From NCBI GenBank assembly GCA_965219665.1, contig CBDCOD010000024.1, forward strand, positions 209,633-273,632: a stretch of 64,000 bases of DNA, given 5' to 3'. The position numbers and the translations under genes are program-made. The notes beneath the pieces are model-generated. The model was not told the DNA's origin, did not search any database, and worked only from the letters and a program-made list of their open reading frames with translations. Of the stretch, positions 41,757-62,572 are shown piece after piece; positions within the stretch are counted from its first letter, which is position 1, and the number at the start of each line of letters is the position of its first letter. The DNA is from Gammaproteobacteria bacterium. Lineage in GTDB: Bacteria > Pseudomonadota > Gammaproteobacteria > CAKMZV01.

Positions 41757-42118
41757 AATACATCCTCATAATTATAAATAGGCACATTAAATAGGTTATT
41801 CTACTATAGCTTAGTCTATTGTCGTGTGATAAGTTGTTTTGCTAACGCTCCCTGCAACTTTATATTTACTGCTCTGCCTGTTCAAACAGAACAGCAGTCC
41901 AAAACGAAGGAGTGCTTGTATCTTGAAAGCCGGCACCAAGCAGGCGAGCGTTACCATTGCTGTCCGTAGTATGGTACAAATCTTAAAAAACAAATATTTT
42001 TAAGTACTTGAAATAACAAATCTTTTTAAAATCAAATGGCTTTTGGGTGGAGATTTGGTGGAAATTTTCGTGCAACCGTGCATTTGCACCACCTGTGTTT
42101 CACATATATGTGTAGTAT

Positions 42119-42495
42119 ATGAAAATTATAACAGGTATCACAACAATAGTGCTTTTTGTACTTCTTTCTTTTAATGGCGCGGCAAAATAGCCCCTGTGGG
42201 TTAATTCCGAAGACATTATAGACTTCTCATTATTTGCAGTTGATGCCAAAGGTCATAAAAATGAAATAGTCAACACCAGTGCTGCTGGTGTAGTACAGAT
42301 CATTGTTTACAATGATCTGAAAGGAACGCCTGCTCAAAACAAAAAGGCGTACCAAAAACGAGAGAAGTCTATAAAAAAATACTATCCTAATGCGATAGTT
42401 GTCTTTGGCGGCTTTACAGAAAGAAGTCCTTATGCACTTCTATTAGGTAAAAAATATGCAAATCCACAGCATCCATGGGACAGTTCTTCAGATTA
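42119..42495 (+). pseudogene. small secreted-protein ORF interrupted by in-frame TAG after the signal peptide
   Basis: ATG at 42119 encodes MKIITGITTIVLFVLLSFNGAAK. A TAG lies at 42188-42190. The same frame then continues open for 101 codons (PLWVNSEDIIDFSLF...NAIVVFGGF...) to a TAA at 42495. Confidence 0.3.
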
Positions 42496-42732
42496 AATCA
42501 ACAAAAAGTACCGTAAGGGTTACGGTTGCACAATCTACCAAACCACACAAAGGTAAGGGAGTAAAACAAACAGAAAAACAAAAATCTAAAGCCCTTATGC
42601 AGAAGATGTTGGTGCTCTTAATTCCTAAGTACAGCACCAAAAAAATGCAAGAAGAAAGTGGACCTCTTGTTGTTAATAAACCGTTTCTATTTAAGGTGCG
42701 TTAGCATACCTCTTCTCAAACAACGAAATGCA

Positions 42733-42879
42733 ATGAAAAAAGACACTTTCTATTTTCCACACGATTACAACGCTGCCTCTGATGAAAAGATAGAGAAACT
42801 GCTTTTCGAACTTGGTAATGAAGGCTATGGTATTTATTGGAGAATTATTGAAATGCTCTATCAAAATAACCGGAGTTAG
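42733..42879 (+). pseudogene. 5' fragment of phage replisome-organizer-like gene (DUF4373 / Lin1244-Lin1753 N-terminal domain), truncated after 48 codons at the array boundary
   Basis: MKKDTFYFPHDYNAASDEKIEKLLFELGNEGYGIYWRIIEMLYQNNRS* matches the characteristic DUF4373 N-terminus (K-D-x-[FY]-Y-F-x-H-D-x-N-A-x-x-D-x-K-I ... EGYG.YW...E). The frame ends 2 nt before the orphan tail cassette. Confidence 0.55.
42778..42871 (+). repeat. left copy of ~93-bp direct repeat (DUF4373 gene segment) flanking the array
   Basis: TCTGATGAAAAGATAGAG...ATGCTCTATCAAAATAAC is about 90% identical to 60698-60790 (about 9 mismatches). Confidence 0.7.
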
Positions 42880-42881
42880 TT

Positions 42882-43073
42882 GTGACAGTTACCGCTGCGG
42901 TAGCACAAGCTGCCAGCAGTGGTGGCGGTGGTGGCGGTGGCGACAGCAGCGGCGGCGGTGGCGGGGGTGGCTGTAGCTTACAGTCTGAATCAGGCGCAAT
43001 AGACTGGACGCTATGGTTGCTTGCTCTATTGAGTTTAGCTGCACTGCGTGGCTATCGCCGCAGGGTATCTTAG
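42882..43073 (+). other. orphan 3' cassette encoding only the C-terminal sorting-signal tail of the NHL/cadherin protein family
   Basis: 63 codons, MTVTAAVAQAASSGGGGGGGDSSGGGGGGGCSLQSESGAIDWTLWLLALLSLAALRGYRRRVS*. The last 40 residues are identical to the tails of array copies 1-3. It is followed by the same 210-bp spacer and has no upstream gene body. Confidence 0.5.
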
Positions 43074-43174
43074 ATGAAAGGGCAGAAATGCCGTTTTATG
43101 TGACACAATTGCCATTCATGCTCAAAAGCAGCCTGAATGGATGCAATGTTTGCTGCGACACGTTTTCCTAACTG

Positions 43175-43215
43175 TTCGCAGCGAATAGTATCGTATGGTT
43201 GTGTTACAATCCCCT
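43175..43215 (+). promoter_or_regulatory. putative sigma-70 extended -10 promoter (TGtTACAAT) repeated in each array spacer
   Basis: TGTTACAAT at 43202-43210, about 74 nt upstream of the copy-1 ATG. The same element is conserved at 48027-48035, 52814-52822 and 57636-57644 ahead of copies 2-4. The -35 element is weak. Confidence 0.3.
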
Positions 43216-43283
43216 TAATATATATATTTATAGAACAACGAATCCATTCATTTCATTCATATCAATAATCACACAGAACTATT

Positions 43284-46200
43284 ATGCATACGAACAATAC
43301 ACATAGCAATACACATAGCAGTACATTTAACAATACACTGTATTCCATCCAAAAACGGGTAGTTTTCTTGCTCTGCATAGTATCGGCATTGGTGTCGGCA
43401 TCGCTGTGGTCAATGACAGCAAGTGCAGCTGCGCCAGTTGCTTTAAGCCATATTTTGTCTGTACAAACCTACGCAGGGGGTGGGAATGGCGATGACAGCA
43501 CCTCCGATGGCGCCAGCACCAAAACCGCGCGGTTTAGTGGAGTTAGTGGGCTTAGAGTAGCACCGGATGGGCGCCTCTTTGTCGCGGACAGTGAGCGCTT
43601 ACGCGTGGTGAGCGCGGATGGCAGCACGGTATCCACCTACGCTGGTGGCGGCAGCGTGGATGTAGATAGCGCCAGCACCGCCAATATTCGTTTTCGCAGT
43701 CTCCAAGACGTAGCCATTCACCCCGATGGACGCGTGTTTGTTTTAGATGGAGGCTTCTCCTCTGGGAATCGCGTATATGTTATTAACCCAACTGGCAGCA
43801 CCGCCTCTGTTTATGCGGGCGGGGGACCAATTGGTGGCTTTGCTGGCAGTTTTGCAGATGGTGCCAGTACTACCACTGCGCGCTTTGACCGACCTTTGGG
43901 GATGGCGCTTCGCTCTGATGGACGGCTTTTCATTGCCGATACAGCCAACCATCGCATTCGCGTCATCAGCGCGGATGGCGCCACCGTTTCTACCTATGCA
44001 GGCAATGGCAATCCAGGATTGCTTGATGGCGATGCGGATGCGGCTGAGTTTAATGGCCCTGTCAGCCTGGCATTTGCTACCGATGGGCGCCTCTTTGTCG
44101 GCGATGGCAACAACCGCCGCATTCGGGTGATTAGTGCCGATGGCAATACGGTTTCCACCTACGCCGGTCGCGGTGCCACTGGCGAAACAGCATTAGGTTC
44201 ACCATTCCCGCCCGCTGATAGCATTGATTTTTTTGATGTTGCCTATATTGCTATTACCAACGATGGGCGCATTCTGGTCAGCGATGATGGCTCTTCTAAT
44301 ATTCGGGTTATCAGCGCGGATGGCAGCCGTGTTTCTGTGTATGCAGGCGTTAATGTTGCCGCCTCTGACGATATAAGACCAAGCTTTCCCTCTAGCCCCT
44401 TAAATGAAGGTCTTCCTGCTGCAGAGGCGGGTTTTAGAAACCCTAGGGGCATCGCTATTGACGCGACTGGGCGGGTATTTGTCGCCAATCGCGATTTTAA
44501 CTTAGTGAGCGTTATTGCCCCCAGTTTGGCAGTGGCAGATATCCCCCCTGCGCAATTAAGCGCTGCACAGCAAGTACGCGGAGCAAGCGTCTTCAGCGCT
44601 GGCGTGGTGCAATCCCTATTTAGCGATGCGGATGGGAGCACCTTAAGCTACAGCTTGGTCGAAACCAGTTCGGCGACGGCTGTATCCTTTGCCATTGATA
44701 GCGTCAGTGGCGCTATCACCTACCTTCAGCCCACAGAGGCGCTGGCTAATACGCAAACACTGGTGATTGCCGTCAGTGATGAGCAAGGCACAGCTACTTC
44801 CCGTCTGACGGTTATTTCTGAACCTTTGAGCAACTATCCGCCCCAGTTTGGTTTATCCACCAGTGCCCTCACGCGCGCAGAAGGGTTTGCAGACCCCATA
44901 ACCATTACCATCAATGACCCAGATGATGGGGATACGGACAGTATAGAGCAGGCGATTACATACAGCCTACGCATAGACCCTAATGACTTATTGGCGCCTT
45001 TTGCAACATTTGCGATTGACCCACAATCAGGCACAATCACCATTACCAGCATCAGCGGCGTAGGCGCGTTTGGCAATATAACCGTTCGGGTTATTGCTGA
45101 TGATGGCAGTAACAGCCATAGTGAGTCCGAACAAAGCTTTACCCTCACTGTAACCCAAGTGAATAACACCCCGCCTGTGGTAGCTCCAAGCCTGCGCACT
45201 GTGCGCACCTATGCAGGCAGCGGCGGTAACGATTTTGCAGATGGTAGCGCCCTGACAGCACAATTCAACACTCCAAACGGTATTGCTCGGGCAGCCGATG
45301 GACGCATCTTTGTTGCAGATACTTTCAACCATCGTATTCGCGTCATTAGTGCTGATGGTGCGACTGTTTCCACTTATGCAGGTGATGGCGTTGCGGCCTT
45401 TGCAGATGGCAGCACCAGCACAGCACGCTTTTCCCAACCTCAAGGCATTGCCGTGGCAGCCGATGGCCGCCTCTTTGTTGCAGATGAGTTCAATAACCGT
45501 ATTCGCGTCATTAGTGCCGATGGTGCAACTGTTTCCACTTATGCAGGTGATGGCGAAGCGGCCTTTGTAGATGGCAGCACCACCACGGCACGCTTTAGTT
45601 TTCCACGCGGTATTGCCGTGGCAGCCGATGGGCGCGTCTTTGTTGCAGATACTTTCAATAACCGTATTCGCGTCATTAGTGCCGATGGTGCTACCGTCTC
45701 TACTTATGCAGGCATTGGTGGCTTTGGCTTCGCCAATGGCAGCACCAGCACGGCACAATTTAGTTTACCATTCGGCGTTGCCGTGGCAGCCGATGGGCGC
45801 GTCTTTGTTGCAGATGCTGGCAATCAGCGCATTCGCGTCATTAGTGCCGATGGTGCGACTGTTTCCACTTATGCAGGTGATGGCGTTGAGAACTTTGCAG
45901 ATGGCAGCACCACCACCGCTCGCTTTGAAGAGCCAACCGATCTTGTAGTTGCCTCCGATGGTCGCGTCTTTGTTGCTGACACAAATAACAATCGGATTCG
46001 CGTGATTAGTGCCGATGGTGCCTCTGTCTCTACCTATGCAGGTAGTGGTGCAGCTGCCCAAACCAATGAGCCTCAAAAATCACAAACCGCTCTTGATATA
46101 GATTTAAGAGAACCGCGAAGAATGATTCTTGCGCCGGATGGACGCCTCTTTTTCACTGACTCAGGTAACCATCGTATTCGCGTGATTGAAGTCATTTCCT

Positions 46201-47894
46201 CAACTTCTGAAAACTTTGGCTCTGTTACCTTAGGTGCTGAATTTCAAGGGGCTGGAACGCGCGTTATTGGCGCACAAAACCTATTTTTTGATGCAGAAGC
46301 TAATGACTTAACCTTTAGCATTCTCTCTGGTAATGAGGACGGCTTATTTGCCATCGATGCAGCCAGTGGCAGGGTTACGCTGGCAGGCAGTTTAACCGAT
46401 AGACAAACAGGGATCAACACGCTGGTTATCCAGGCACAAGATCTTGCTGGCAGCGCCACCGTAACCCTTACCATCGTAGTGGAAGAGGTGAACGATCCTC
46501 CCACGTTCGCCCTGTCTACCAGCACATTGGAATTAGATGAAGATTTCGGCACTAATACCGATATTGTGGTAGTGAATCCCGATGATGGGGACGCTGCGAT
46601 TGAGCAAATACTGACTTATAGCGTGAGCACCAACAATGTTGGCTTTACCACACTGACTATCAATGCACAATCAGGGACACTTACCTTGACCAGTATAGCG
46701 GATGCTTTTGGTGAGGCAACTCTTACCATAACGGTGACTGATTCTTCTGCTACCAACAATGAGGCAACCCAAGTCCTTAGATTACGAGTACTCTCTGTGA
46801 ATGACCCGCCTGCCTTTTCCCTCTCTACGACCACACTGAGGCTCACTGAGGACTTTGCTCAAGCAATAACTGTATCGGTGGTGAACCCAAATGATGTTGA
46901 TGGTGATGGTGATGGCATGGAGCAAACTTTAACCTATAGCATATCACCAGTTAGTTTAGAGGTGGTTGGTATAAGCTTTGATGCCAATTCAGGTCAAGTA
47001 ATTCTCAATAGCGTTGCCGATGCCAATAGCATTAACCCGATTCTGTTTGAAATAACTGCGAATGATGGTGGCGCGGTCAATAATCTATTCTCGCAGTCAT
47101 TTACCCTTGAGATTGAGCCTGTGAATGACCCAGGGAGGAATGACCCGCCTAATGTTGTGCTGTCAACTGCTGTGCTCACGCTGGATGAAGATTTTGGCAG
47201 TGCTTCTATAACTGTGGTGAGAAGCGATGACGGGGATGACACCAATCAACCTTTGACTTATAGTATAAGCACCACTAATATCGGTTTTGCAATGATTTCT
47301 ATTGATAGCAACTCAGGCGCTATAACCCTGAGTAGTGTCGATAACCAATTTGGGCAAGCCACTTTGTTTGTGACGGTGGATGACTCTGCTCCTGAGGATA
47401 ATCTTTCAATCATACAGGTTGTTGTTAGGGCACGTGCTGTGAACGATGTGCCAACTTTTACCTTATCACGAACGGCGTTGACGCTGGATGAGGATTTTGG
47501 AACCAATACGGATATTAGCGTGGTGAGTCCAAATGATGGCGACAATGGCGATCAAGTGATTACTTATAGTATTAATCCTACTAATACCGAATTTGCTACT
47601 TTAGCAATTGATGCGCAAACAGGGGAGGTTACTATAACCAGTGTCGCTAATGGATTTGGGAGTGCAGTCATTACAGTGATAGCAGAAGATGATGGTGGCG
47701 GCGATACCAACCAGTCAACCCAAACCTTTATGCTGACTGTGGTTGATAGTGTGTCAGAAGCTGCCAGCAGTGGTGGCGGAGGTGGTGGAGGCTGTAGCTT
47801 ACAGTCTGAATCAGGCGCAATAGACTGGACGCTATGGTTGCTTGCTCTATTGAGTTTAGCTGCACTGCGTGGCTATCGCCGCAGGGTATCTTAG
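43284..47894 (+). CDS. giant secreted repeat protein, copy 1: signal peptide, NHL beta-propeller, cadherin/Ig-like domains, second NHL propeller, ~5 cadherin-like domains, C-terminal GlyGly-CTERM/MYXO-CTERM-like sorting tail
   Basis: 1536 aa. Twelve NHL-type blades (e.g. ...ARF..P.G.A..ADGRLFVADT.NHRIRVISADGATVSTYAG.G...). Repeated ~100-aa modules are bounded by VNDPP(A/T)F as in cadherin-like/RTX adhesin repeats. The tail is SSGGGGGGGCSLQSESGAIDWTLWLLALLSLAALRGYRRRVS. Confidence 0.85.
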   Translation: MHTNNTHSNTHSSTFNNTLYSIQKRVVFLLCIVSALVSASLWSMTASAAAPVALSHILSVQTYAGGGNGDDSTSDGASTKTARFSGVSGLRVAPDGRLFVADSERLRVVSADGSTVSTYAGGGSVDVDSASTANIRFRSLQDVAIHPDGRVFVLDGGFSSGNRVYVINPTGSTASVYAGGGPIGGFAGSFADGASTTTARFDRPLGMALRSDGRLFIADTANHRIRVISADGATVSTYAGNGNPGLLDGDADAAEFNGPVSLAFATDGRLFVGDGNNRRIRVISADGNTVSTYAGRGATGETALGSPFPPADSIDFFDVAYIAITNDGRILVSDDGSSNIRVISADGSRVSVYAGVNVAASDDIRPSFPSSPLNEGLPAAEAGFRNPRGIAIDATGRVFVANRDFNLVSVIAPSLAVADIPPAQLSAAQQVRGASVFSAGVVQSLFSDADGSTLSYSLVETSSATAVSFAIDSVSGAITYLQPTEALANTQTLVIAVSDEQGTATSRLTVISEPLSNYPPQFGLSTSALTRAEGFADPITITINDPDDGDTDSIEQAITYSLRIDPNDLLAPFATFAIDPQSGTITITSISGVGAFGNITVRVIADDGSNSHSESEQSFTLTVTQVNNTPPVVAPSLRTVRTYAGSGGNDFADGSALTAQFNTPNGIARAADGRIFVADTFNHRIRVISADGATVSTYAGDGVAAFADGSTSTARFSQPQGIAVAADGRLFVADEFNNRIRVISADGATVSTYAGDGEAAFVDGSTTTARFSFPRGIAVAADGRVFVADTFNNRIRVISADGATVSTYAGIGGFGFANGSTSTAQFSLPFGVAVAADGRVFVADAGNQRIRVISADGATVSTYAGDGVENFADGSTTTARFEEPTDLVVASDGRVFVADTNNNRIRVISADGASVSTYAGSGAAAQTNEPQKSQTALDIDLREPRRMILAPDGRLFFTDSGNHRIRVIEVISSTSENFGSVTLGAEFQGAGTRVIGAQNLFFDAEANDLTFSILSGNEDGLFAIDAASGRVTLAGSLTDRQTGINTLVIQAQDLAGSATVTLTIVVEEVNDPPTFALSTSTLELDEDFGTNTDIVVVNPDDGDAAIEQILTYSVSTNNVGFTTLTINAQSGTLTLTSIADAFGEATLTITVTDSSATNNEATQVLRLRVLSVNDPPAFSLSTTTLRLTEDFAQAITVSVVNPNDVDGDGDGMEQTLTYSISPVSLEVVGISFDANSGQVILNSVADANSINPILFEITANDGGAVNNLFSQSFTLEIEPVNDPGRNDPPNVVLSTAVLTLDEDFGSASITVVRSDDGDDTNQPLTYSISTTNIGFAMISIDSNSGAITLSSVDNQFGQATLFVTVDDSAPEDNLSIIQVVVRARAVNDVPTFTLSRTALTLDEDFGTNTDISVVSPNDGDNGDQVITYSINPTNTEFATLAIDAQTGEVTITSVANGFGSAVITVIAEDDGGGDTNQSTQTFMLTVVDSVSEAASSGGGGGGGCSLQSESGAIDWTLWLLALLSLAALRGYRRRVS

Positions 47895-48103
47895 ATGAAA
47901 AAGGCAGAAATGCCGTTTTATGTGACACAATTGCCATTCATGCTCAAAAGCGCCTGAATGGATGGCTGCAATGTTTGCTGCGACACGTTTTCCTAACTGT
48001 TCGCAGCCAATAGTATCGTATGGTTGTGTTACAATTCTCTTAATATATATATTTATAGAACAACGAATCCATTCATTCATATCAATAATCACACAGAACT
48101 ATT

Positions 48104-51100
48104 ATGCATAAGACCAATACACATAGCAATACACTGTATTCCATCCAAAAACGCTTAGTTTTCTTGCTCTGCATAGTATCGGCATTGGTGTCGGCATCGC
48201 TGTGGTCAATGACAGCAAGTGCAGCTGCGCCAGTTGCTTTAAGCCATATTTTGTCTGTACAAACCTACGCAGGGGGTGGGAATGGCCCAGCCAACACCTC
48301 CGATGGCAACAGCACCAAAACCGCGCGGTTTGATATACCCACTGGGCTTAGAGTAGCACCGGATGGGCGCCTTTTTGTCACGGACAGTGAGCGCTTACGC
48401 GTGGTGAGCGCGGATGGCAGCACGGTATCCACCTACGCTGGTGGCGGCATCGTGGATGTAGTAGATAGCGCCAGCACCGCCAATATTCGTTTTCGCAGAC
48501 TCCGAGACGTAGCCATTCACCCCGATGGCCGCGTGTTTGTTTTAGATGGAGGCTTCTCCTCTGGGCATCGCGTATATGTTATTGACCCAACTGGCAGCAC
48601 CGCCTCTGTCTATGCGGGCGGAGGACCAATTGGTAACTTTGCTGGCAGTTTTGCAGATGGTGGCAGCACTACCACTGCGCGCTTTAACCAACCTTTGGGG
48701 ATGGCGCTTCGCTCTGATGGACGGCTTTTCATTGCCGATACAGCCAACCATCGCATTCGCGTCATCAGCGCGGATGGCGCCACCGTTTCTACCTATGCAG
48801 GCAATGGCAATCCAGGATTGGTTGATGGCGATGCGGATGCGGCTGAGTTTAATGGCCCTGTCAGCCTGGCATTTGCTACCGATGGGCGCCTCTTTGTCGG
48901 CGATGGCAACAACCGCCGCATTCGGGTGATTAGTGCCGATGGCAATACGGTTTCCACCTACGCCGGTCGCGGCGCCACTGGCGAAACAGACCTAGAGTCA
49001 CAATTCCCGCCCGCTGATAGCATTGATTTTTTTGATGTTGCCTATATTGCTATTACCACCGATGGGCGCATTATAGTCAGCGATGATGGTTCTCATAATA
49101 TTCGGGTCATCAGCGCGGATGGCAGCCGTGTTTCTGTGTATGCAGGCGCTGATGGAGTCAGCTCTGGCAACATACGAACAAGCTTTCCCTTTAACCCCTT
49201 AAATGAAGGTCCTGCTGCAGAGGCAGGTTTTAGAACCCCTAGGGGCATCGCTATTGATGCGGCTGGGCGGGTATTTGTCGCCAATCGCGATTTTAGCTTA
49301 GTGAGCGTTATTGCCCCCAGTTTGGCAGTGGCAGATATCCTCCCTGCGCAATTAAGCGCTGCACAGCAAGTACGCGGAGCAAGCCTCTTCAGCGCTGGCG
49401 TGGTGCAATCCCTATTTAGCGATGCGGATGGGAGCACCTTAAGCTACAGCTTGGTCGAAACCAGTTCGGCGACGGCTATATCCTTTGCCATTGATAGTGT
49501 CAGTGGCGCTATCACCTACCTTCAGCCCACAGAGGCGCTGGCTAATACGCAAACACTGGTGATTGCCGCCAGTGATGAGCAAGGCACAGCTACTTCCCGT
49601 CTGACGGTTATTTCTGAACCTTTGAGCAACTACCCGCCCCAGTTTGGTTTATCCACCAGTGCCCTCACGCGCGCAGAAGGGTTTGCAGACCCCATAACCA
49701 TTACCATCAATGACCCAGATGATGGGGATACGGACGGTATAGAGCAGCCGATTACATACAGCCTGCGCATAGCCCCTAATGACTTATTGGCGCCTTTTGC
49801 AACATTTGCGATTGACCCACAATCAGGCACAATCACCATTACCAGTATCAGCGGCGCAGGCGCGTTTGGCAATATAACCGTTCGGGTTATTGCTGATGAT
49901 GGCAGTAACAGCCATAGTGAGTCCGAACATAGCTTTGCCCTCACTGTAACCCAAGTGAATAACAGCCCGCCTGTGGTAGCTCCAAGCCTGCGCATTGTGC
50001 GCACCTATGCAGGCAGCGGCGTTAGCGATTTTGCAGATGGTAGCGCCCTGACAGCACAATTCAACGCTCCACGCGGTATTGCCCGTGCAGCCGATGGCCG
50101 CCTCTTTGTTGCAGATGCTTCCAATGACCGCATCCGAGTAATCAGTGCCGATGGTGCGACTGTTTCCACTTATGCAGGTGATGGCGTTGAGAACTTTGCA
50201 GATGGCAGCACCAGCACCGCACGCTTTCGTTCTCCAAGCGGCGTTGCTCTGGCAGCCGATGGGCGCGTCTTTGTTGCAGATACGGATAACAATCGGATTC
50301 GCGTGATTAGTGCCGATGGTGCGACTGTTTCCACTTATGCAGGTGATGGCGTTGAGGGCTTTGCAGATGGCAGCACCAGCACGGTACGCTTTCGTTTTCC
50401 ACGTGGCGTTGCCTTGACAGCCGATGGGCGCCTCTTTGTTGCAGATACTTTCAATGACCGTATTCGCGTCATTAGTGCCGATGGTGCGACTGTTTCCACT
50501 TATGCAGGTGGTGGCGTTCCGGGCTTTGCAGATGGCAGCACCACCACCGCACGCTTTAATACGCCACGCGGCGTTGCCTTGGCAGCCGATGGGCGCGTCT
50601 TTGTTGCAGATGCTGGCAATCACCGCATTCGCGTCATTAGTGCCGATGGTGCGACTGTTTCCACTTATGCAGGTGATGGCGTTGAGAGCTTTGCAGATGG
50701 CAGCACGACCACCGCTCGCTTTGATGACCCAACCGATTTTGTAGTTGCCTCCGATGGTCGGCTGTTTGTTGCTGATACGGGTAACAGTCGGATTCGCGTG
50801 ATTAGTGCCGATGGTGCCTCTGTCTCTACCTATGCAGGTAGTGGTGCAGTTGCCCAAGCTAATGAGCATCAAGAATTACAAGCCGCTGTTGATATAGATA
50901 TAGGCGCTCCGCGAAGAATGACTCTTGCGCCGGATGGACGCCTCTTTTTCACTGACTCAGATAGTAATCGTATTCGCGTGATTGAAGACGTTTCCTCAAC
51001 TTCTGAAAACTTTGGCTCTGTTACCTTAGGCGCTGGATTTCAAGGGGCTGGAACGCGCGTTATTAGCGCACAAAACCTATTTTTTGATGCAGAAGGTAAT

Positions 51101-52681
51101 GACTTAACCTTCAGCATTCTCTCTGGTAATGAAGACGGCTTATTTGCCATCGATGCAGCCAGTGGCAGGGTTACGCTGGCAGGCAGTTTAACCGATAGAC
51201 AAACAGGGATCAACACGCTGGTTATCCAGGCACAAGATCTTGCTGGCAGCGCCACCGTAACCCTTACCATCGTAGTGGAAGAGGTGAACCAAGCTCCCAC
51301 GTTCGCCCTGTCTTCCAGCACTTTGGAATTAGATGAAGATTTCGGCACTAATACCGATATTGTGGTAGTGAATTCCGATGATGGGGATGCCGCGATTGAG
51401 CAAATACTGACTTATAGCGTGAGCACCAACAATGTCGGCTTTACCACACTGACTATCAATGCACAATCAGGGGCACTTACCTTGACCAGTATAGCGGATG
51501 CTTTTGGTGAGGCAACCCTTACCATAACGGTGAGTGATTCTTCTACTACCAACAGTGAGGCAACCCAAACCCTTAGATTACGAGTACTCCCCGTGAATGA
51601 CCCGCCTGCCTTTTCCCTCTCTACGACCACACTGAGGCTCACTGAGGACTTTGCTCAAGCAATAACTGTATCGGTGGTGAACCCAAATGATGGCGATGAT
51701 GATGGCATGGAGCAAACTTTAACCTATAGCATATCACCGGTTAGTTTAGAGGTGGTTGGTATAAGCTTTGATGCCAATTCAGGTCAAGTAATTCTCAATA
51801 GCGTTGCCGATGCCAATAGCATTAACCCGATTCTGTTTGAAATAACTGCGAATGATGGTGGCGCGGTCAATAATCTATTCTCGCAGTCATTTACCCTTGA
51901 GATTCAGCCTGTGGATGACCCGGGGAATGACCCGCCTAATGTTGTGCTGTCAACTGCTGTGCTCACGCTGGATGAAGATTTTGGCAGTGCTTCTATAACT
52001 GTGGTGAGTAGCGATGACGGGGATGGCACCAATCAACCTTTGACTTATAGTATAAGCACCACTAATATCGGTTTTGCAACGATTTCTATTGATAGCAACT
52101 CAGGCGCTATAACCCTGAGTAGTGTCGATAACCAATTTGGGCAAGCCACTTTGTTTGTGACGGTGGATGACTCTGCTCCTGAGGATAATCTTTCAATCAT
52201 ACAGGTTGTTGTTGAGGCACGTTCTGTGAACGATGTGCCAACTTTTACCTTATCACGAACGGCGCTGACGCTGGATGAGAATTTTGGAAGCAATACGGAT
52301 ATTAGCGTGGTGAGTCCAAATGATGGCGACAATGGCGATCAAGTGATTACTTATAGTATTAATCCTACTAATACTGGATTTGCTACTTTAGCAATTGATG
52401 CGCAAACAGGGGAGGTTACTATAACCAGTGTCGCTAATGGATTTGGGAGTGCAGTCATTACAGTGATAGCAGAAGATGATGGTGGCGGCGATACCAACCA
52501 GTCAACCCAAACCTTTATGCTGACTGTGGTTGATAGTGTGTCAGAAGCTGCCAGCAGTGGTGGCGGAGGTGGTGGAGGCTGTAGCTTACAGTCTGAATCA
52601 GGCGCAATAGACTGGACGCTATGGTTGCTTGCTCTATTGAGTTTAGCTGCACTGCGTGGCTATCGCCGCAGGGTATCTTAG
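48104..52681 (+). CDS. giant secreted NHL-propeller/cadherin-like repeat protein with C-terminal sorting tail, copy 2
   Basis: 1525 aa, collinear with copy 1 and estimated by eye at about 90-95% identity. It has a shorter N-terminal repeat stretch and scattered substitutions, mostly in propeller blades. Confidence 0.85.
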   Translation: MHKTNTHSNTLYSIQKRLVFLLCIVSALVSASLWSMTASAAAPVALSHILSVQTYAGGGNGPANTSDGNSTKTARFDIPTGLRVAPDGRLFVTDSERLRVVSADGSTVSTYAGGGIVDVVDSASTANIRFRRLRDVAIHPDGRVFVLDGGFSSGHRVYVIDPTGSTASVYAGGGPIGNFAGSFADGGSTTTARFNQPLGMALRSDGRLFIADTANHRIRVISADGATVSTYAGNGNPGLVDGDADAAEFNGPVSLAFATDGRLFVGDGNNRRIRVISADGNTVSTYAGRGATGETDLESQFPPADSIDFFDVAYIAITTDGRIIVSDDGSHNIRVISADGSRVSVYAGADGVSSGNIRTSFPFNPLNEGPAAEAGFRTPRGIAIDAAGRVFVANRDFSLVSVIAPSLAVADILPAQLSAAQQVRGASLFSAGVVQSLFSDADGSTLSYSLVETSSATAISFAIDSVSGAITYLQPTEALANTQTLVIAASDEQGTATSRLTVISEPLSNYPPQFGLSTSALTRAEGFADPITITINDPDDGDTDGIEQPITYSLRIAPNDLLAPFATFAIDPQSGTITITSISGAGAFGNITVRVIADDGSNSHSESEHSFALTVTQVNNSPPVVAPSLRIVRTYAGSGVSDFADGSALTAQFNAPRGIARAADGRLFVADASNDRIRVISADGATVSTYAGDGVENFADGSTSTARFRSPSGVALAADGRVFVADTDNNRIRVISADGATVSTYAGDGVEGFADGSTSTVRFRFPRGVALTADGRLFVADTFNDRIRVISADGATVSTYAGGGVPGFADGSTTTARFNTPRGVALAADGRVFVADAGNHRIRVISADGATVSTYAGDGVESFADGSTTTARFDDPTDFVVASDGRLFVADTGNSRIRVISADGASVSTYAGSGAVAQANEHQELQAAVDIDIGAPRRMTLAPDGRLFFTDSDSNRIRVIEDVSSTSENFGSVTLGAGFQGAGTRVISAQNLFFDAEGNDLTFSILSGNEDGLFAIDAASGRVTLAGSLTDRQTGINTLVIQAQDLAGSATVTLTIVVEEVNQAPTFALSSSTLELDEDFGTNTDIVVVNSDDGDAAIEQILTYSVSTNNVGFTTLTINAQSGALTLTSIADAFGEATLTITVSDSSTTNSEATQTLRLRVLPVNDPPAFSLSTTTLRLTEDFAQAITVSVVNPNDGDDDGMEQTLTYSISPVSLEVVGISFDANSGQVILNSVADANSINPILFEITANDGGAVNNLFSQSFTLEIQPVDDPGNDPPNVVLSTAVLTLDEDFGSASITVVSSDDGDGTNQPLTYSISTTNIGFATISIDSNSGAITLSSVDNQFGQATLFVTVDDSAPEDNLSIIQVVVEARSVNDVPTFTLSRTALTLDENFGSNTDISVVSPNDGDNGDQVITYSINPTNTGFATLAIDAQTGEVTITSVANGFGSAVITVIAEDDGGGDTNQSTQTFMLTVVDSVSEAASSGGGGGGGCSLQSESGAIDWTLWLLALLSLAALRGYRRRVS

Positions 52682-52887
52682 ATGAAAAAGGCAGAAATGC
52701 CGTTTTATGTGACACAATTGCCATTCATGCTCAAAAGCGCCTGAATGGATGGCTGCAATGTTTGCTGCGACACGTTTTCCTAACTGTTCGCAGCCAATAG
52801 TATCGTATGGTTGTGTTACAATCCTCTTAATTATATATATTTATAGAACAACGAATCCATTCATATCAATAATCACACAGGACTATT

Positions 52888-55800
52888 ATGCATACGATCA
52901 ATACACATAGCAGTACACATAGCAATACATTTAACAATACACTGTATTCCATCCAAAAACGCTTAGTTTTCTTGTTCTGCATAGTATCGGCATTGGTGTC
53001 GGCATCGCTGTGGTCAATGACAGCAAGTGCAGCTGCGCCAGTTGCTTTAAGCCATATTTTGTCTGTACACACCTACGCAGGGGGTGGGACTGGCCCTGAC
53101 AGCACCTCCGATGGCAACAGCACCCAAACCGCGCGTTTTGATCAACCCAATGGGCTTAGAGTAGCACCGGATGGGCGCCTCTTTATCACGGACCGTGGGC
53201 GCTTACGCGTGGTGAGCGCGGATGGCAGCACGGTATCCACCTACGCTGGTGGCGGTAGTGTGGATGTAGATAGCGCCAGCACCTCCAATATTCGTTTTCG
53301 CGAACTCCAAGACGTAGCTATTCACCCCGATGGCCGCGTGTTTGTTTTAGATGGAGGGTCGCGCTCTGGGCATCGCGTGTATGTTATTGACCCAACTGGC
53401 AGCACCGCCTCTGTCTATGCGGGCGGGGGACCAATTGGTAACTTTGCTGGCAGTTTTGCAGATGGTGCCAGCACTACCACTGCGCGCTTTAACCAACCTT
53501 TGGGGATGGTGCTTCACTCTGATGGACGGCTTTTCATTGCCGACACAGACAACCATCGCATTCGCGTCATCAGCGCGGATGGCGCCACCGTTTCTACCTA
53601 TGCAGGCAATGGCAATCCAGGATTGGCTGATGGCGATGCGGATGCGGCTGAGTTTAACGGTCCTGTCAGCCTGGCATTTGCTACCGATGGGCGCCTCTTT
53701 GTCGGCGATGGCAACAACCGCCGCATTCGGGTGATTAGTGCCGATGGCAATACGGTTTCCACCTACGCCGGTCGCGGTGCCACTGGCGAAACAGCATTAG
53801 GTTTACCATTCCCGCCCGCTGATAGCATCGATTTTTTTGATGTTGCCTATATTGCCATTACCACCGATGGGCGCATTCTAGTCAGCGATGATGGCTCTCA
53901 TAATATTCGGGTCATCAGCGCAAATGGCAGCCGTATTTCTGTGTATGCAGGCGCTAATGGAGTCACCCCTGGCAACATAAGAGGCTTTGCCCCTAACCCC
54001 TTAAATGAAGGTCTTCCTGCTGTAGACGCAGGTTTTGGAAGCCCTAGGGGCATCGCTATTGACGCGACTAGGCGGGTATTTGTCGCCAATCGCAATTTTA
54101 ACTTAGTGAGCGTTATTGCCCCCAGTTTGGCAGTGGCAGATATCCCCCCTGCGCAATTAAGCGCAGCACAGCAAGTACGCGGATCAAGCGTCTTCAGCGC
54201 TGGCGTGGTGCAATCTCTATTTAGCGATGCGGATGGGAGCACTTTAAGCTACAGCTTGGTCGAAACCAGTTCGGCGACGGCTGTATCCTTTGCCATTGAT
54301 AGCGTCAGTGGCGCTATCACCTACCTTCAGCCCACAGAGGCGCTAGCTAATACGCAAACACTGGTGATTGCCGCCAGTGATGAGCAAGGCACAGCTACTT
54401 CCCGTCTGACGGTTATTTCTGAACCTTTGAGCAACTATCCGCCCCAGTTTGGTTTATCCACCAGTGCCCTCACGCGCGCAGAAGGGTTTGCAGACCCCAT
54501 AACCATTACCATCAATGACCCAGATGATGGGGATACGGACGGTATAGAGCAGCCGATCACATACAGCCTGCGCATAGACCCTAATGACTTATTGGCGCCT
54601 TTTGCAACATTTGCGATTGACCCACAATCAGGCACAATCACCATTACCAGTATCAGCGGCGCAGGCGCGTTTGGCAATATAACCGTTCGGGTTATTGCTG
54701 ATGATGGCAGTAACAGCCGTAGTGAGTCCGAACAAAGCTTTACCCTCACTGTAACCCAAGTGAATAACAGCCCGCCTGTGGTAGCTCCAAGCCTGCGCAT
54801 TGTGCGCACCTATGCAGGCAGCGGCGTTAACGATTTTGCAGATGGTAGCGCCCTGACAGCACAATTCAACGCTCCAAGCGGTATTGCTCGGGCAGCCGAT
54901 GGACGGCTTTTCATTGCCGATACAGACAACCATCGTATTCGCGTCATTAGTGCCGATGGTGCGACTGTTTCCACTTATGCAGGTGATGGCGTTGAGGACT
55001 TTGCAGATGGCAGCACCAGCACGGCACGCTTTAGTTCTCCACGTGGCGTTGCCTTGGCAGCCGATGGCCGCCTCTTTGTTGCAGATGAGTTCAATCACCG
55101 TATTCGCGTCATTAGTGCCGATGGTGCGACTGTTTCCACTTATGCAGGTGATGACGCTGCGGCTTTTGCAGATGGCAGCACCAGCACGGCACGCTTTAGT
55201 TCTCCACGTGGCGTTGCCTTGGCAGCCGATGGACGCCTCTTTGTTGCAGATACTTTCAATGACCGTATTCGCGTCATTAGTGCCGATGGTGCGACTGTTT
55301 CTACTTATGCAGGCAGTGGTTTTGGCTTCGCCAATGGCAGCACCAGCACCGCCCGCTTTAATACGCCACGCGGCGTTGCCGTGGCAGCCGATGGGCGCGT
55401 CTTTGTTGCAGATGCTGGCAATCAGCGCATTCGCGTCATTAGTGCCGATGGTGCGACTGTTTCCACTTATGCAGGTGATGGCGTTCAGAGCTTTGCAGAT
55501 GGCAGCACGACCACCGCTCGGTTTGATAGCCCAACCGATTTTGTAGTTACCTCCGATGGTCGCGTCTTTGTTACTGATACGGGTAATCATCGTATTCGCG
55601 TGATTAGTGCCGATGGTGCCTCTGTCTCTACCTATGCAGGTAGTGGTGCAGTTGCCCAAACTAATGCGCCTCAACTAGAATCACAAACCGCTCTTGATAT
55701 AGATTTAAGATTTCCGCAAAGAATGACTCTTGCGCCGGATGGACGCCTCTTTTTCACTGAGACAAATATTCATCGTATTCGCGTGATTGAAGTCGTTTCC

Positions 55801-57504
55801 TCAGCTTCTGAAAACTTTGGCTCTGTTACCTTAGGCGCTGAATTTCAAGGGGCTGGAACGCACGTTATTGGCGCACAAAACCTATTTTTTGATGCAGAAG
55901 GTAATGACTTAACCTTCAGCATTCTCTCTGGTAATGAGGACGGCTTTTTTGCCATCGATGCAGCCAGTGGCAGGGTTACGCTGGCAGGCAGTTTAACCGA
56001 TAGACAAACAGGGATCAACACGCTGGTTATCCAGGCACAAGATCTTGCTGGCAGCGCCACCGTAACCCTTACCATCGTAGTGGAAGAGGTGAACGATCCT
56101 CCCACGTTCGCCCTGTCTACCAGCACATTGGAATTAGATGAAGATTTCGGCACTAATACCGATATTGTGGTAGTGAATCCCGATGATGGGGACGCTGCGA
56201 TTGAGCAAATACTGACTTATAGCGTGAGCACCAACAATGTTGGCTTTACCACACTGACTATCAATGCACAATCAGGGACACTTACCTTGACCAGTATAGC
56301 GGATGCTTTTGGTGAGGCAACTCTTACCATAACGGTGACTGATTCTTCTGCTACCAACAATGAGGCAACCCAAGTCCTTAGATTACGAGTACTCTCTGTG
56401 AATGACCCGCCTGCCTTTTCCCTCTCTACGACCACACTGAGGCTCACTGAGGACTTTGCTCAAGCAATAACTGTATCGGTGGTGAACCCAAATGATGTTG
56501 ATGGTGATGGTGATGGCATGGAGCAAACTTTAACCTATAGCATATCACCAGTTAGTTTAGAGGTGGTTGGTATAAGCTTTGATGCCAATTCAGGTCAAGT
56601 AATTCTCAATAGCGTTGCCGATGCCAATAGCATTAACCCGATTCTGTTTGAAATAACTGCGAATGATGGTGGCGCGGTCAATAATCTATTCTCGCAGTCA
56701 TTTACCCTTGAGATTGAGCCTGTGGATGACCCAGGGAGGAATGACCCGCCTAATGTTGTGCTGTCAACTGCTGTGCTCACGCTGGATGAAGATTTTGGCA
56801 GTGCTTCTATAACTGTGGTGAGAAGCGATGACGGGGATGGCACCAATCAACCTTTGACTTATAGTATAAGCACCACTAATATCGGTTTTGCAATGATTTC
56901 TATTGATAGCAACTCAGGCGCTATAACCCTGAGTAGTGTCGATAACCAATTTGGGCAAGCCACTTTGTTTGTGACGGTGGATGACTCTGCTCCTGAGGAT
57001 AATCTTTCAATCATACAGGTTGTTGTTGAGGCACGTGCTGTGAACGATGTGCCAACTTTTACCTTATCACGAACGGCGTTGACGCTGGATGAGGATTTTG
57101 GAACCAATACGGATATTAGCGTGGTGAGTCCAAATGATGGCGACAATGGCGATCAAGTGATTACTTATAGTATTAATCCTACTAATACCGAATTTGCTAC
57201 TTTAGCAATTGATGCGCAAACAGGGGAGGTTACTATAACCAGTGTCGCTAATGGATTTGGGAGTGCAGTCATTACAGTGATAGCAGAAGATGATGGTGGC
57301 GGCGATACCAACCAGTCAACCCAAACCTTTATGCTGACTGTGCTGGATGTGGTTGATAGTGTGTCACAGCCTGCCAGCAGTGGTGGCGGGGGTGGTGGCG
57401 GCTGTAGCTTACAGTCTGAATCAGGCGCAATAGACTGGACGCTATGGTTGCTTGCTCTATTGAGTTTAGCTGCACTGCGTGGCTATCGCCGCAGGGTATC
57501 TTAG
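52888..57504 (+). CDS. giant secreted NHL-propeller/cadherin-like repeat protein with C-terminal sorting tail, copy 3
   Basis: 1538 aa with the same architecture and tail as copies 1-2. Confidence 0.85.
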   Translation: MHTINTHSSTHSNTFNNTLYSIQKRLVFLFCIVSALVSASLWSMTASAAAPVALSHILSVHTYAGGGTGPDSTSDGNSTQTARFDQPNGLRVAPDGRLFITDRGRLRVVSADGSTVSTYAGGGSVDVDSASTSNIRFRELQDVAIHPDGRVFVLDGGSRSGHRVYVIDPTGSTASVYAGGGPIGNFAGSFADGASTTTARFNQPLGMVLHSDGRLFIADTDNHRIRVISADGATVSTYAGNGNPGLADGDADAAEFNGPVSLAFATDGRLFVGDGNNRRIRVISADGNTVSTYAGRGATGETALGLPFPPADSIDFFDVAYIAITTDGRILVSDDGSHNIRVISANGSRISVYAGANGVTPGNIRGFAPNPLNEGLPAVDAGFGSPRGIAIDATRRVFVANRNFNLVSVIAPSLAVADIPPAQLSAAQQVRGSSVFSAGVVQSLFSDADGSTLSYSLVETSSATAVSFAIDSVSGAITYLQPTEALANTQTLVIAASDEQGTATSRLTVISEPLSNYPPQFGLSTSALTRAEGFADPITITINDPDDGDTDGIEQPITYSLRIDPNDLLAPFATFAIDPQSGTITITSISGAGAFGNITVRVIADDGSNSRSESEQSFTLTVTQVNNSPPVVAPSLRIVRTYAGSGVNDFADGSALTAQFNAPSGIARAADGRLFIADTDNHRIRVISADGATVSTYAGDGVEDFADGSTSTARFSSPRGVALAADGRLFVADEFNHRIRVISADGATVSTYAGDDAAAFADGSTSTARFSSPRGVALAADGRLFVADTFNDRIRVISADGATVSTYAGSGFGFANGSTSTARFNTPRGVAVAADGRVFVADAGNQRIRVISADGATVSTYAGDGVQSFADGSTTTARFDSPTDFVVTSDGRVFVTDTGNHRIRVISADGASVSTYAGSGAVAQTNAPQLESQTALDIDLRFPQRMTLAPDGRLFFTETNIHRIRVIEVVSSASENFGSVTLGAEFQGAGTHVIGAQNLFFDAEGNDLTFSILSGNEDGFFAIDAASGRVTLAGSLTDRQTGINTLVIQAQDLAGSATVTLTIVVEEVNDPPTFALSTSTLELDEDFGTNTDIVVVNPDDGDAAIEQILTYSVSTNNVGFTTLTINAQSGTLTLTSIADAFGEATLTITVTDSSATNNEATQVLRLRVLSVNDPPAFSLSTTTLRLTEDFAQAITVSVVNPNDVDGDGDGMEQTLTYSISPVSLEVVGISFDANSGQVILNSVADANSINPILFEITANDGGAVNNLFSQSFTLEIEPVDDPGRNDPPNVVLSTAVLTLDEDFGSASITVVRSDDGDGTNQPLTYSISTTNIGFAMISIDSNSGAITLSSVDNQFGQATLFVTVDDSAPEDNLSIIQVVVEARAVNDVPTFTLSRTALTLDEDFGTNTDISVVSPNDGDNGDQVITYSINPTNTEFATLAIDAQTGEVTITSVANGFGSAVITVIAEDDGGGDTNQSTQTFMLTVLDVVDSVSQPASSGGGGGGGCSLQSESGAIDWTLWLLALLSLAALRGYRRRVS

Positions 57505-57715
57505 ATGAAAGGCAGAAATGCTGTTTTATGTGACACAATTGCCATTCATGCTCAAAAGCAGCCTGAATGGATGGCTGCAATGTTTGCTGCGACACGTTTT
57601 CCTAACTGTTCGCAGCGAATAGTATCGTATAGTTGTGTTACAATCCTCTTAATATATACACATCTATATAACAACGCATTCATTCATTCATATCAATAAT
57701 CACAGAGGACTATTA

Positions 57716-60697: not shown

Positions 60698-60790
60698 TCT
60701 GATGAAAAGATAGAGGAACTGTTGTTCAAACTTGGTAATGAAGGCTGTGGTGTCTATTGGAGAATAGTTGAAATGCTCTATCAAAACAAC
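60698..60790 (+). repeat. right copy of ~93-bp direct repeat (DUF4373 gene segment) flanking the array
   Basis: Encodes SDEKIEELLFKLGNEGCGVYWRIVEMLYQNN, versus SDEKIEKLLFELGNEGYGIYWRIIEMLYQNN in the left copy. Confidence 0.7.
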
Positions 60791-60827
60791 AATTCCTTAC
60801 GAACGTAATACGAACCTAATACTATAA

Positions 60828-60986
60828 AAGGAAAGTATTAAAAAAGAAGTATCTGACGATACTTCACAAAAAAACACAAAAAAAGATTCAAGTCCAATTA
60901 AATCAGTCGTCAGCAAACCTTACGACGTAACCCAAGAAACTTGGGACGCTTGGCTTACAGTCAGAGATTGTAGGGGGGGTAGATGA
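60828..60986 (+). pseudogene. fragment of phage replication protein (middle region with TQETWDAWLTVR motif), no start codon
   Basis: Open frame KESIKKEVSDDTSQKNTKKDSSPIKSVVSKPYDVTQETWDAWLTVRDCRGGR*. The W-x2-W/F-x3-R segment matches the conserved motif found after the N-terminal domain in phage DnaD-like replisome-organizer proteins. Confidence 0.35.
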
Positions 60987-61531
60987 AATGGGATGATGGC
61001 GCGTTGGTTTGGGATGGCGTTGAAAGCCCCTTGCAATGCGGGTTACAGGGGGGTGCAAGCCCCTTTTTTTATAGTTTTCGGTTTGGGTTGGAAAAACGGA
61101 TTTATGGGTATAAAAGGGGAGGAAAATAGGGTTAAAACCATCCGTAAATCATCCAAAAGGTAAGCAAAAAAAAGAATAAAATGGGGCAAGCGGAGAGCGC
61201 AGTAATAAGTCTTGCGCGATGAGGGGTAAATTGGCGTAGCCAAGAGGGGGATGATGCAAGCAAAGCGCAGCATCCGCGCTGCCCCCCTTTCAAACTGGTA
61301 AAGAAAACTAATCTAGAGTTCTTATAGCAGTCTATCAGAGGATGCGCGCGCGGGCAGAACTGGGTTTGTGTTTAGACTGATGGTTTGGTATAATTGCTAG
61401 CGTATGCTAATGTAGCGATCAGCATAGGGGGTAGAAGTCGCCCGTCCTCCTCCGCCATTTATGGCGTGATTAAGCAGAGTTGCGCACTGTCTGGTCGCTA
61501 TTTTATTTCCTCAAATTTCCCCAATTCTTGA

Positions 61532-61843
61532 CTACTGATTAGGCTGGCTGACCAGATGTAGTTGGCTTGTAGGTTTTTGCCGGTCAACGCGGGCGGTTTG
61601 GTTGGTTTGTACGACCAATTTGTTTGCTGCATCGTTGGGCAGGTCAATAACGAATAGCAGATTTTTATTGTTGGTGTCATAGAGCACGCGGTTTGGGTTG
61701 GCAATGTGCTGTAGGATGTTCAAGATAAAGTCATCATCAACGGCAATATTCTTTTCTTTTTTGAGGTCGCGAACCATGCGGGTTATGCGTTTGTCTTGTG
61801 CCAGAATGATCGCGGTGTTTGGCGTAACACCAGTGTTTTCCAA
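61532..61843 (-). CDS. hypothetical protein (prophage-remnant region)
   Basis: 103-aa ORF directly downstream of the Mu F-like pseudogene on the same strand. No recognisable motif. Confidence 0.25.
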   Translation of the reverse strand: MENTGVTPNTAIILAQDKRITRMVRDLKKEKNIAVDDDFILNILQHIANPNRVLYDTNNKNLLFVIDLPNDAANKLVVQTNQTARVDRQKPTSQLHLVSQPNQ

Positions 61844-61916
61844 ATAATCAACTGCTGCGGCAGGCAGGAAGCCTACGGGCGCAGTTTTGCCGGTGTTAGT
61901 GGGTGATTGATTGTCG

Positions 61917-62550: not shown

Positions 62551-62572
62551 TAATTTGGCAGCCCCCGCAACA

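Follow-up and report, generated by a model that had tools for sequence, protein, structure and literature searches.

A tandem NHL/cadherin array preceded by an orphan tail

The DNA analysed here, a stretch of 64,000 nucleotides to which we refer as the window, carries on its forward strand a tandem array of surface-protein genes, composed of three near-full copies (1525-1538 aa) and a shorter, frame-broken fourth copy, with spacers of about 210 nt between them. The full copies encode a signal peptide, NHL beta-propeller repeats, cadherin-like / tandem-95 domains and a C-terminal tail made of a Gly run, a Cys, a transmembrane helix and an Arg cluster, which matches the JDVT-CTERM type of sorting signal (see below). 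Copy 1 (A-type, 1536 aa) lies at 43284-47894; copy 2 (A-type, 1525 aa) follows at 48104-52681 after spacer 1 (47895-48103), and copy 3 (A-type, 1538 aa) at 52888-57504 after spacer 2 (52682-52887). The array ends with copy 4, of the short type, at 57715-60674 behind spacer 3 (57505-57714). About 1.65 kb of the N-terminal part is missing from this last copy, several frames are broken in its NHL region, and its tail is a divergent JDVT-CTERM that we denote 'last-type' (CSLQSATNHPIDTTLWW...RRPQKNL).

Overall, copies 1-3 share 94.5-95.5% identity. Copies 1 and 3 do not differ at all over four consecutive 150-column windows of the alignment (columns 3151-3750), and the same holds for copies 2 and 4 in another window. 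Judged from the alignment, such mosaic blocks of 100% identity between differing pairs of copies are a gene conversion signature. Each of copies 1-3 has its own spacer, ATG and signal peptide, and a single expression site is absent from the array.

Upstream of copy 1, at 42871-43073 on the forward strand, we found an orphan cassette that represents the 67 C-terminal codons of an NHL/cadherin paralog of the B type. It is read as a 63-codon ORF at 42882-43073 (+), which starts with GTG; upstream of the GTG the frame stays open as far as a TAA at 42867-42869. The ORF encodes MTVTAAVAQAASS-GGGGGGG-DSS-GGGGGGG-C-SLQSESGAIDWTLWLLALLSLAALRGYRRRVS. The cassette comprises the end of a B-type body (ELVVTVTAAVAQAA), a linker at 42915-42971 (SS-G7-DSS-G7), and a JDVT-CTERM tail that runs from the Cys codon at 42972 to the stop codon at 43071-43073, all on the forward strand. 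What it encodes is the Gly-rich linker, the Cys, the transmembrane helix and the Arg cluster only, with no variable region, and the ORF has no signal peptide. Its last 40 residues are those of copies 1-3, and at the DNA level the stretch from the Cys codon to the stop (42972-43073) is identical to each of these copies at 102 of 102 nt. The only part that is unique to the cassette is the linker and, ahead of it, 14 residues from the end of the B-type body. A GGAG is found at 42872-42875, 6 nt ahead of the GTG at 42882. The tail-only frame with its spacer, described next, is as a whole far beyond chance.

The cassette is followed by a full intergenic unit, spacer 0, at 43074-43283 (+, 210 nt), which on sequence grounds presumably contains the promoter and 5' UTR of copy 1. 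Aligned with the three internal spacers, spacer 0 is identical in 196-200 of about 215 columns, as compared with 195-203 of 210-212 columns for the internal spacers among themselves. It contains an invariant extended -10-like element, TGTTACAAT, at 43202-43210, which was picked by eye only, and it has a stable predicted fold (z = -3.3). A consensus scan of spacer 0 for sigma-70 promoters and terminators returned nothing convincing and did not flag the TGTTACAAT element. The initial annotation of this DNA had described a tail-only frame of 63 codons whose last 40 residues are identical to those of copies 1-3 and which is followed by a complete 210-bp spacer; the ORF and its translation, the DNA identity from the Cys codon onward and the match of 43074-43283 to the internal spacers bear out this description.

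The sorting signal encoded by the cassette

The tail of the cassette scores 35.8 bits against NF033191, the JDVT-CTERM profile (curated cutoff 27), and further family tails also exceed this cutoff, with 33.7 bits for copy 1, 31.9 for copy 4 and 31.6 for a B-type gene on the related contig L027. JDVT-CTERM is a Cys-containing tripartite sorting signal with predicted processing by MrtJ, an intramembrane protease of the CPBP/Rce1 type (Haft 2023, bioRxiv 10.1101/2023.06.07.544157). The layout of the cassette tail, C-SLQSESGAIDW-TLWLLALLSLAAL-RGYRRRVS, agrees with this tripartite definition, as a Gly-rich stretch leads into one invariant Cys, behind which come a Leu-rich transmembrane helix and an Arg-rich end.

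In other respects the tails of this family depart from the JDVT-CTERM/MrtJ system. The definition of JDVT-CTERM includes a nearly invariant Asp-Pro about nine residues past the Cys (bioRxiv 10.1101/2023.06.07.544157), whereas in the cassette tail the Asp stands at +10 with Trp next to it (D-W). D-W is also present in P0067, which is more distantly related, and in the last-type tail the Asp is at +11 and precedes a Thr (D-T). JDVT-CTERM proteomes have about one target protein each, and the MrtJ (CPBP) gene is adjacent in 16 of 17 cases (bioRxiv 10.1101/2023.06.07.544157). Here, in contrast, the domain occurs five times within 18 kb of the window, one 46-kb contig carries as many as seven family genes, and the lineage has dozens of paralogs. 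Also in contrast to the adjacent protease gene of the known system, no MrtJ/CPBP protease candidate was found in the 64-kb window by a search for CPBP motifs and annotation of all multi-TM ORFs, which encode NuoN, a Zn-ABC permease, PgsA and EamA. The orphan cassette itself differs further in being a tag without cargo.

In this uncultured gammaproteobacterial lineage the NHL/cadherin family (1000-2250 aa) is expanded into many tandem arrays, all of them tagged with JDVT-CTERM-type signals.

For the sister signal MYXO-CTERM, cleavage by the myxosortase MrtX has been shown experimentally (PMC11980579). By analogy, the cassette would encode that portion of the protein which maturation is expected to remove.

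B-type origin and left junction of the cassette, conserved in five loci

The initial annotation regarded the residues ahead of the tail as only loosely related to the gene body. These residues (ELVVTVTAAVAQAASS) do differ from the A-type body, but they are a near-exact copy of the C-terminus of B-type proteins. An intact counterpart is the B-type gene of L027 (1736 aa), which sits naturally within an array, has the C-terminus ...HTYAELVVTVTAAAVAQPASSGGCSLQSESGAIDW... and is followed by the same spacer and a next gene. Positions 42871-42926 of the window are 93% identical to the natural 3' end of this gene (L027 15051-15109), and positions 42966-43300 are 95% identical to L027 15104-15436, which covers the B tail, the spacer and the start of the next gene. 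The cassette is collinear with an intact B-type 3' end, and the normal downstream intergenic unit follows it. The earlier suggestion that the cassette represents the 3' end of an additional copy that has otherwise been lost is supported, and the comparison with L027 makes it more precise, in that this copy was of the B type and 67 of its codons remain.

The Gly run of the cassette had been described as duplicated. The G7-DSS-G7 arrangement is indeed present, but this form of linker is common in full-length B-type paralogs and is not a peculiarity of the cassette. In a search of the family, B-type ends fall into two forms, AELVVTVTAAVAQAASSG(n)C or ...G(n)DSSG(n)C. The full-length B-type proteins P0007 and P0068 end in ...AELVVTVTAAVAQAASSGGGGGGC..., and ends of the form ...GGGGDSSGGGGGGGC occur in P0008, P0009, P0011 and others, as well as in P0069, which is encoded on the window's own 279-kb contig. 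We rejected both a cassette-specific duplication and a borrowing from the (GGDSS)n linker of short-type genes, since the linker takes this form in full-length B-type genes too. The start signals of the ORF, GGAG and GTG, are likewise part of the B-type gene, in which they belong to the internal codons GCG-GAG-TTA-GTT-GTG (A-E-L-V-V). Because these are ordinary internal codons, the start signals of the cassette appear to be fortuitous.

Immediately upstream of the cassette, at 42730-42870 (+), lies a 47-codon 5' fragment of a phage replication-initiator gene of the Lin1244_N / DUF4373 type (Lin'). It matches PF14297 over profile positions 1-40 of 95 (E=5.4e-10) and the replication initiation protein family phrog_2562 over positions 5-49 of 290 (E=1.4e-11). 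The apparent last two codons and stop of this fragment (42871-42879) are B-derived sequence. The junction is sharp, with the Lin1244_N fragment reaching up to 42870 and the B homology starting at 42871; two truncated genes meet at a single point, and on both sides homology is lost abruptly against unrelated DNA. Farther upstream, positions 41973-42234 (+) form the start of a left-end module that is common to L022/L027, L025 and L023 (inverted in the latter), with 90% identity by blastn to L022 9563-9810 and L025 213-473. By translation, a small secreted-like ORF begins in this segment (42121-42189) and then meets an in-frame TAG. The small ORF continues into an indel segment at 42235-42689 (+), delimited by blastn gaps and by alignment, which is absent from L022, L025 and L023b and of which L024 shares at least the last 54 nt.

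Relatives of the locus were found by a protein search with the 63-aa ORF, which yielded six small ORFs from ENA metagenome assemblies, and the contigs that carry them were read. As these loci were found with the cassette as the query, any impression that all arrays begin with a tail-only remnant is subject to ascertainment bias. A contig scan of GTDB-representative genomes with copy 1 returned distant NHL proteins only (26-42% identity), the lineage being absent from that set, and exact scans for the tail pattern in JGI metagenome contigs and IMG/VR gave 0 matches. Looking up the exact sequences of the cassette product, copy 1 and GlyA, and those of P0010, P0006 and P0129, likewise yielded no record. 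The GlyA protein encoded in the window has at most 74% identity to any database protein, apart from an exact copy on another contig, and its matches with a named organism stand at about 70%.

In the alignment, the left junction is equal base for base in five loci, namely the window and four contigs out of three metagenome assemblies (L022, L023b, L024 and L025). Homology to the module starts at about position 41973 in four contexts, and the flanks beyond it differ in at least three of the five loci: the module begins within the glyA upstream region in the window and precisely where tRNA-Leu(TAA) ends (3') in L022, while it has an IS upstream in L023b and unrelated sequence ahead of it in L025. 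Identity of the module DNA is 89-100% throughout, non-coding parts included. The relatives show, in other words, the conserved end of a truncated pseudogene with invariant junctions, an outcome that the initial annotation had itself named as refuting its reading. A second, independent tail-only remnant is found in L023a and L026, where an hsdR gene is followed by MNIDSENVQRRMHD, a Gly run, the tail, a spacer and a gene. Both types of tail-only junction lie near the Gly run; we did not adopt a recombination hot spot as an explanation, since a short-ORF query is biased toward short remnants.

It had also been proposed that copy numbers and breakpoints be compared across relatives. Copy number indeed varies, whereas the left breakpoint, as described above, is the same in the five loci. 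Between the cassette and the last-type tail there is one gene in L025, two in L024 (a provisional count, as this contig has 2x coverage and could be collapsed), three in L027 and four in the window. The array of L022/L027 is ordered as cassette, A-type gene (1526 aa), B-type gene (1736 aa) and a gene with an A-type C-terminal body (1560 aa). The first gene past the cassette varies by locus and can be A-type, B-type (L023b, 1610 aa) or short-type. These arrays of 1-4 genes therefore have fixed ends, with the cassette on the left and the last-type tail on the right, and a variable interior.

The cassette itself also differs between loci. Four relatives have 2-3 Gly in place of the G7-DSS-G7 of the window, and linker length ranges from 2 to 17 residues. 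Private substitutions in the cassette tail are found at conserved positions, with an A to I change in the transmembrane helix (L022, L023b) and a W to G change in the D-W motif (L025), whereas the tail of the window cassette is fully homogenised with its neighbours. The cassette ORF is intact in four of the five loci and frameshifted in L024, the contig of 2x coverage; an intact ORF with the same start is found in the window, L022, L023b, L025 and P0006.

At the right end of the array, a 93-nt sequence at 60698-60790 (+), which corresponds to Lin' codons 17-47 and begins 23 nt past the stop codon of copy 4, repeats directly the 93 nt at 42778-42870 (+) on the left. The two copies end at the same base (...CAAAAYAAC), and an approximately 91% match to the repeat is also present after the last copy in L023 and L024. 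Positions 60702-63196 contain phage-derived remnant DNA with fragments of a MuF / minor-head / DNA-pilot gene and an AdfA-like ORF on the minus strand. This DNA is absent from L027 and L025, in which the last copy joins straight to the sequence from window position 63197 onward. Going by the sequence at the breakpoint, the downstream difference is accounted for by a simple 2.5-kb indel with the junction TCTG/GGGGTC and 2-4 nt of microhomology.

Origin and significance of the orphan cassette

In our view the cassette is most likely a relic: of a lost B-type gene only the final 67 codons remain, fused to a piece of a phage gene. The order of events that we infer is the following. In the ancestral array, a B-type NHL/cadherin surface-protein gene would have stood directly upstream of the present first gene. 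One event of illegitimate recombination, either a deletion or an insertion, would then have joined codon 47 of the replication initiator to codon -67 of the B-type gene, removing the whole B body and sparing the linker, the JDVT-CTERM signal and the complete downstream spacer. The resulting junction would have become the fixed left border of an array-bearing module within degraded phage or island DNA, and this module may have been inherited or copied into several genomic contexts.

Two processes could account for the persistence of the cassette. The downstream spacer probably survived because it serves the next gene: the first intact gene would depend on it for its promoter and 5' region, and longer deletions would be selected against. 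In addition, the tail-spacer block offers about 310 nt of near-perfect homology to every internal unit and would be overwritten by gene conversion and unequal crossing-over, which would explain both the perfect tail identity in the window and the variation of linker length between loci. Signs of these processes are present in the mosaic blocks and in the 1-4 genes found between the same end units. On this pattern, homologous recombination clearly acts on the arrays, and the orphan tail-spacer is one of its substrates. The 63-codon ORF would be fortuitous and without function. Among the counterpoints to the relic, the plausible SD-GTG pair and the intact ORF may leave room for translation, and the 93-nt repeat, together with the occurrence of the module in at least three contexts, hints at a mobility more active than simple inheritance.

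The initial annotation had offered a second reading, in which the cassette is a silent donor for recombination with the expressed genes. Its tail would recombine into them and so vary the surface protein, in the manner of pilS or vls cassettes. Tandem, near-identical surface-protein genes, repeated spacers, mosaic blocks that record past gene conversion and a linker length that differs among orthologous cassettes are all in line with such a role. Still, a donor of this kind would have nothing to give: it holds a constant linker and a sorting signal identical to that of its recipients at every position, so that a transfer would change nothing on the mature protein, from which the tail, by the MYXO-CTERM analogy, would be cleaved off. 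Each full copy also has its own spacer and start rather than sharing a unique expression site, the left junction is invariant in the five loci, no recombinase gene adjoins the array in the window, and the cassette-specific stretch TVTAAVAQ is joined to an A-type body in 0 of about 75 family proteins. We regard the donor reading as very improbable. The broader claim of a recombination-based locus for surface-protein variation stands in part, as the copies are mosaic and both copy number and first-gene type vary, but a donor role of the cassette in it is not supported. Even less credible, to the point of being negligible, is an assembly artefact in which the orphan tail arose from mis-joined repeat copies; near-identical 4.8-kb repeats do assemble poorly, but junction and cassette recur in four contigs from three independent assemblies.

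A functional mini-gene, in which the ORF (48-63 aa) yields a small membrane-inserted JDVT-CTERM peptide that acts as a decoy, competitor or regulator of the sorting protease, or as a lipidated peptide, is in our view improbable. The spacing of GGAG and GTG and the same-start intact ORF in the window, L022, L023b, L025 and P0006 argue for it, and a short, weakly charged N-tail could in principle translocate without a signal peptide. Against it, the start signals are inherited from the B-type gene, and gene conversion from functional tails, together with the youth of a module whose DNA is 89-100% identical, is fully sufficient to explain why the ORF is conserved. Moreover, the private substitutions strike conserved positions, the linker can shrink to 2 residues or extend to 17, and a signal peptide is absent. 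The cassette could, alternatively, be a recombination joint of a mobile array, in which the Lin'-tail-spacer block and the 93-nt repeat are functional ends for excision of a circle, re-integration and gene swapping at tail-spacer units. That the repeat brackets the array with both copies ending at the same base, that the same left end of the module occurs in at least three contexts (one of them directly at a tRNA-Leu), and that the first gene and the copy number (1 to 4) change with the locus would fit this model. We nevertheless hold it unlikely, since neither a circular junction nor an integrase was seen, no att-like repeat occurs at the far side within the DNA searched, and a simple deletion at 2-4 nt of microhomology accounts for the lack of the downstream repeat in L027 and L025; the features in its favour are also expected from passive unequal crossing-over in any tandem array in an old island. 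Doubtful as well is a wider version, by which a phage-derived adhesin array module, with the Lin'-tail-spacer block as its standard left end, is mobile among tRNA-Leu, the glyA upstream region and defence islands. Whole NHL/cadherin genes would be exchanged at tail-spacer joints, leading to population-level switching of the surface repertoire, and the module would be served by a multi-client, housekeeping-type D-W variant of JDVT-CTERM whose protease is encoded elsewhere.

Reading the cassette as a relic removes a false lead, as it makes the cassette a conserved pseudogene fragment and not machinery for programmed variation. At the same time, it is a clean worked example of a block of sorting signal plus promoter surviving at the edge of a tandem array. 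The surroundings, that is, the expansion of the family and the island-like module, matter more than the cassette itself. If confirmed in complete genomes, a multi-copy JDVT-CTERM family would widen the known use of the myxosortase-type sorting pathway, and the arrays would be natural material for studying the concerted evolution of large adhesin arrays.

Several known systems can be compared with this locus. Genomic islands associated with tRNA genes and degraded prophages can carry adhesin cargo. In line with this, the module of L022 starts at the 3' end of tRNA-Leu(TAA), and fragments of replication-initiator and MuF/minor-head genes flank the array. The locus differs from such islands in that no integrase was seen in the DNA examined around the module and no attR-like repeat of the tRNA-Leu 3' end was found in L027 or the window, and in that the window copy is not next to a tRNA; no tRNA or Rfam family was found within the window. 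In Neisseria pilE/pilS, Borrelia vlsE/vls and Mycoplasma genitalium MgPa, silent copies hold variable regions and there is one expression site. The locus resembles these systems in having a promoterless partial copy beside expressed surface-protein genes and active homologous recombination in the family; unlike in them, the partial copy here is a constant and, by analogy, cleaved sorting signal, and each full gene has its own spacer. Truncated paralog relics occur at the edges of tandem arrays that undergo unequal crossing-over and gene conversion (concerted evolution). As in such arrays, the end units here are fixed and divergent (the orphan tail at the left border and the last-type tail at the right one), the interior is homogenised and mosaic, and copy number differs among relatives. 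What sets the present case apart is that the junction partner is a fragment of a phage replication gene and that the module recurs in several contexts, but the cassette itself belongs to this well-known class of truncated paralogs at array edges.

Boundaries of the array-bearing module and its phage-derived flanks

The left boundary of the conserved module that carries the surface-protein array is the same in four contexts: it lies at ~41973 in the window and, in related contigs from ENA metagenome assemblies, at 9470-9563 in L022, at ~213 in L025 and at ~123 (reverse) in L023. Since this boundary coincides in L022 with the 3' terminus of tRNA-Leu(TAA), our results suggest that the module is a genomic island or a degraded prophage, with the adhesin array as its cargo. 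A small secreted-like ORF (MKIITGITTIVLFVLLSFNGAAK) is located in the left-end module (window 42121-42496), where an in-frame TAG stops it after codon 23, with another 101 codons beyond. We found no family match for this ORF, and L022, L025 and L023b carry a deletion of most of its body (window 42235-42689).

The whole array is enclosed by two copies of a 93-nt direct repeat (window 42778-42870 and 60698-60790, ~91% identical), which comes from a phage replication-gene fragment and whose last nucleotide is common to both copies. L023 and another related contig, L024, likewise carry the downstream copy, which is absent from L025 and L027. Downstream of the array we found 2.5 kb of degraded phage DNA (window 60702-63196), with fragments of a MuF/minor-head/DNA-pilot gene (phrog_220) in several frames as well as an AdfA-like ORF, all of them on the minus strand. 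L027 and L025 are devoid of this stretch, and there the last array copy abuts the sequence found from window position 63197 onward.

Related arrays are adjoined by anti-phage defence genes, namely ThsB-TIR, DruA, NurA/DUF87, type I HsdR, GmrSD and DUF4411 (L023 1162-9968, L026 4324-9112 and L025 7383-10683). The JDVT-CTERM array family therefore tends to be located in variable defence or island regions.

Gene starts, spacers and the short-type copy

Directly 3' of each copy's ATG is a 12-nt in-frame repeat, AATACACATAGC-like and coding for NTHS/NTHT (window 43287-43330, 48107-48140 and 52891-52940; L027 15423-15500). Its units, which extend the N-region preceding the signal peptide, differ in number among copies and loci, from one to about five.

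The first 150 nt of every spacer contain a stable fold (z = -3.3; window 43074-43215). The spacer has a hairpin (GCTGCGA-17 nt-TCGCAGC) as well as an inverted repeat over a longer range, GTGACACAA...TTGTGTTAC, whose 3' arm overlaps the invariant extended -10-like TGTTACAAT. These structures could represent an operator, a terminator or an RNA element.

Copy 4, the 'short-type' gene (window 57715-60674), lacks ~1.65 kb of the N-terminal region, as do genes of 1092-1120 aa in L025, L023a and L026, which are intact. In the window, the NHL part of copy 4 is broken up over five or more overlapping frames; therefore, either this copy is a pseudogene or sequence errors are present.

A JDVT-CTERM paralog family

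Five JDVT-CTERM tails are found in the window (span 42951-60674), and no CPBP protease gene was found in these 64 kb. Together with ENA proteins P0007-P0079, the window's genes form a large paralog family bearing this tag, with types of 975 to 2250 aa and up to seven family genes on a single 46-kb contig. JDVT-CTERM was described as occurring about once per proteome, adjacent to the gene for the MrtJ protease (bioRxiv 10.1101/2023.06.07.544157), whereas here many paralogs are tagged. Moreover, the near-invariant D-P of the JDVT-CTERM definition is replaced in the tails of this family by D-W or D-T.
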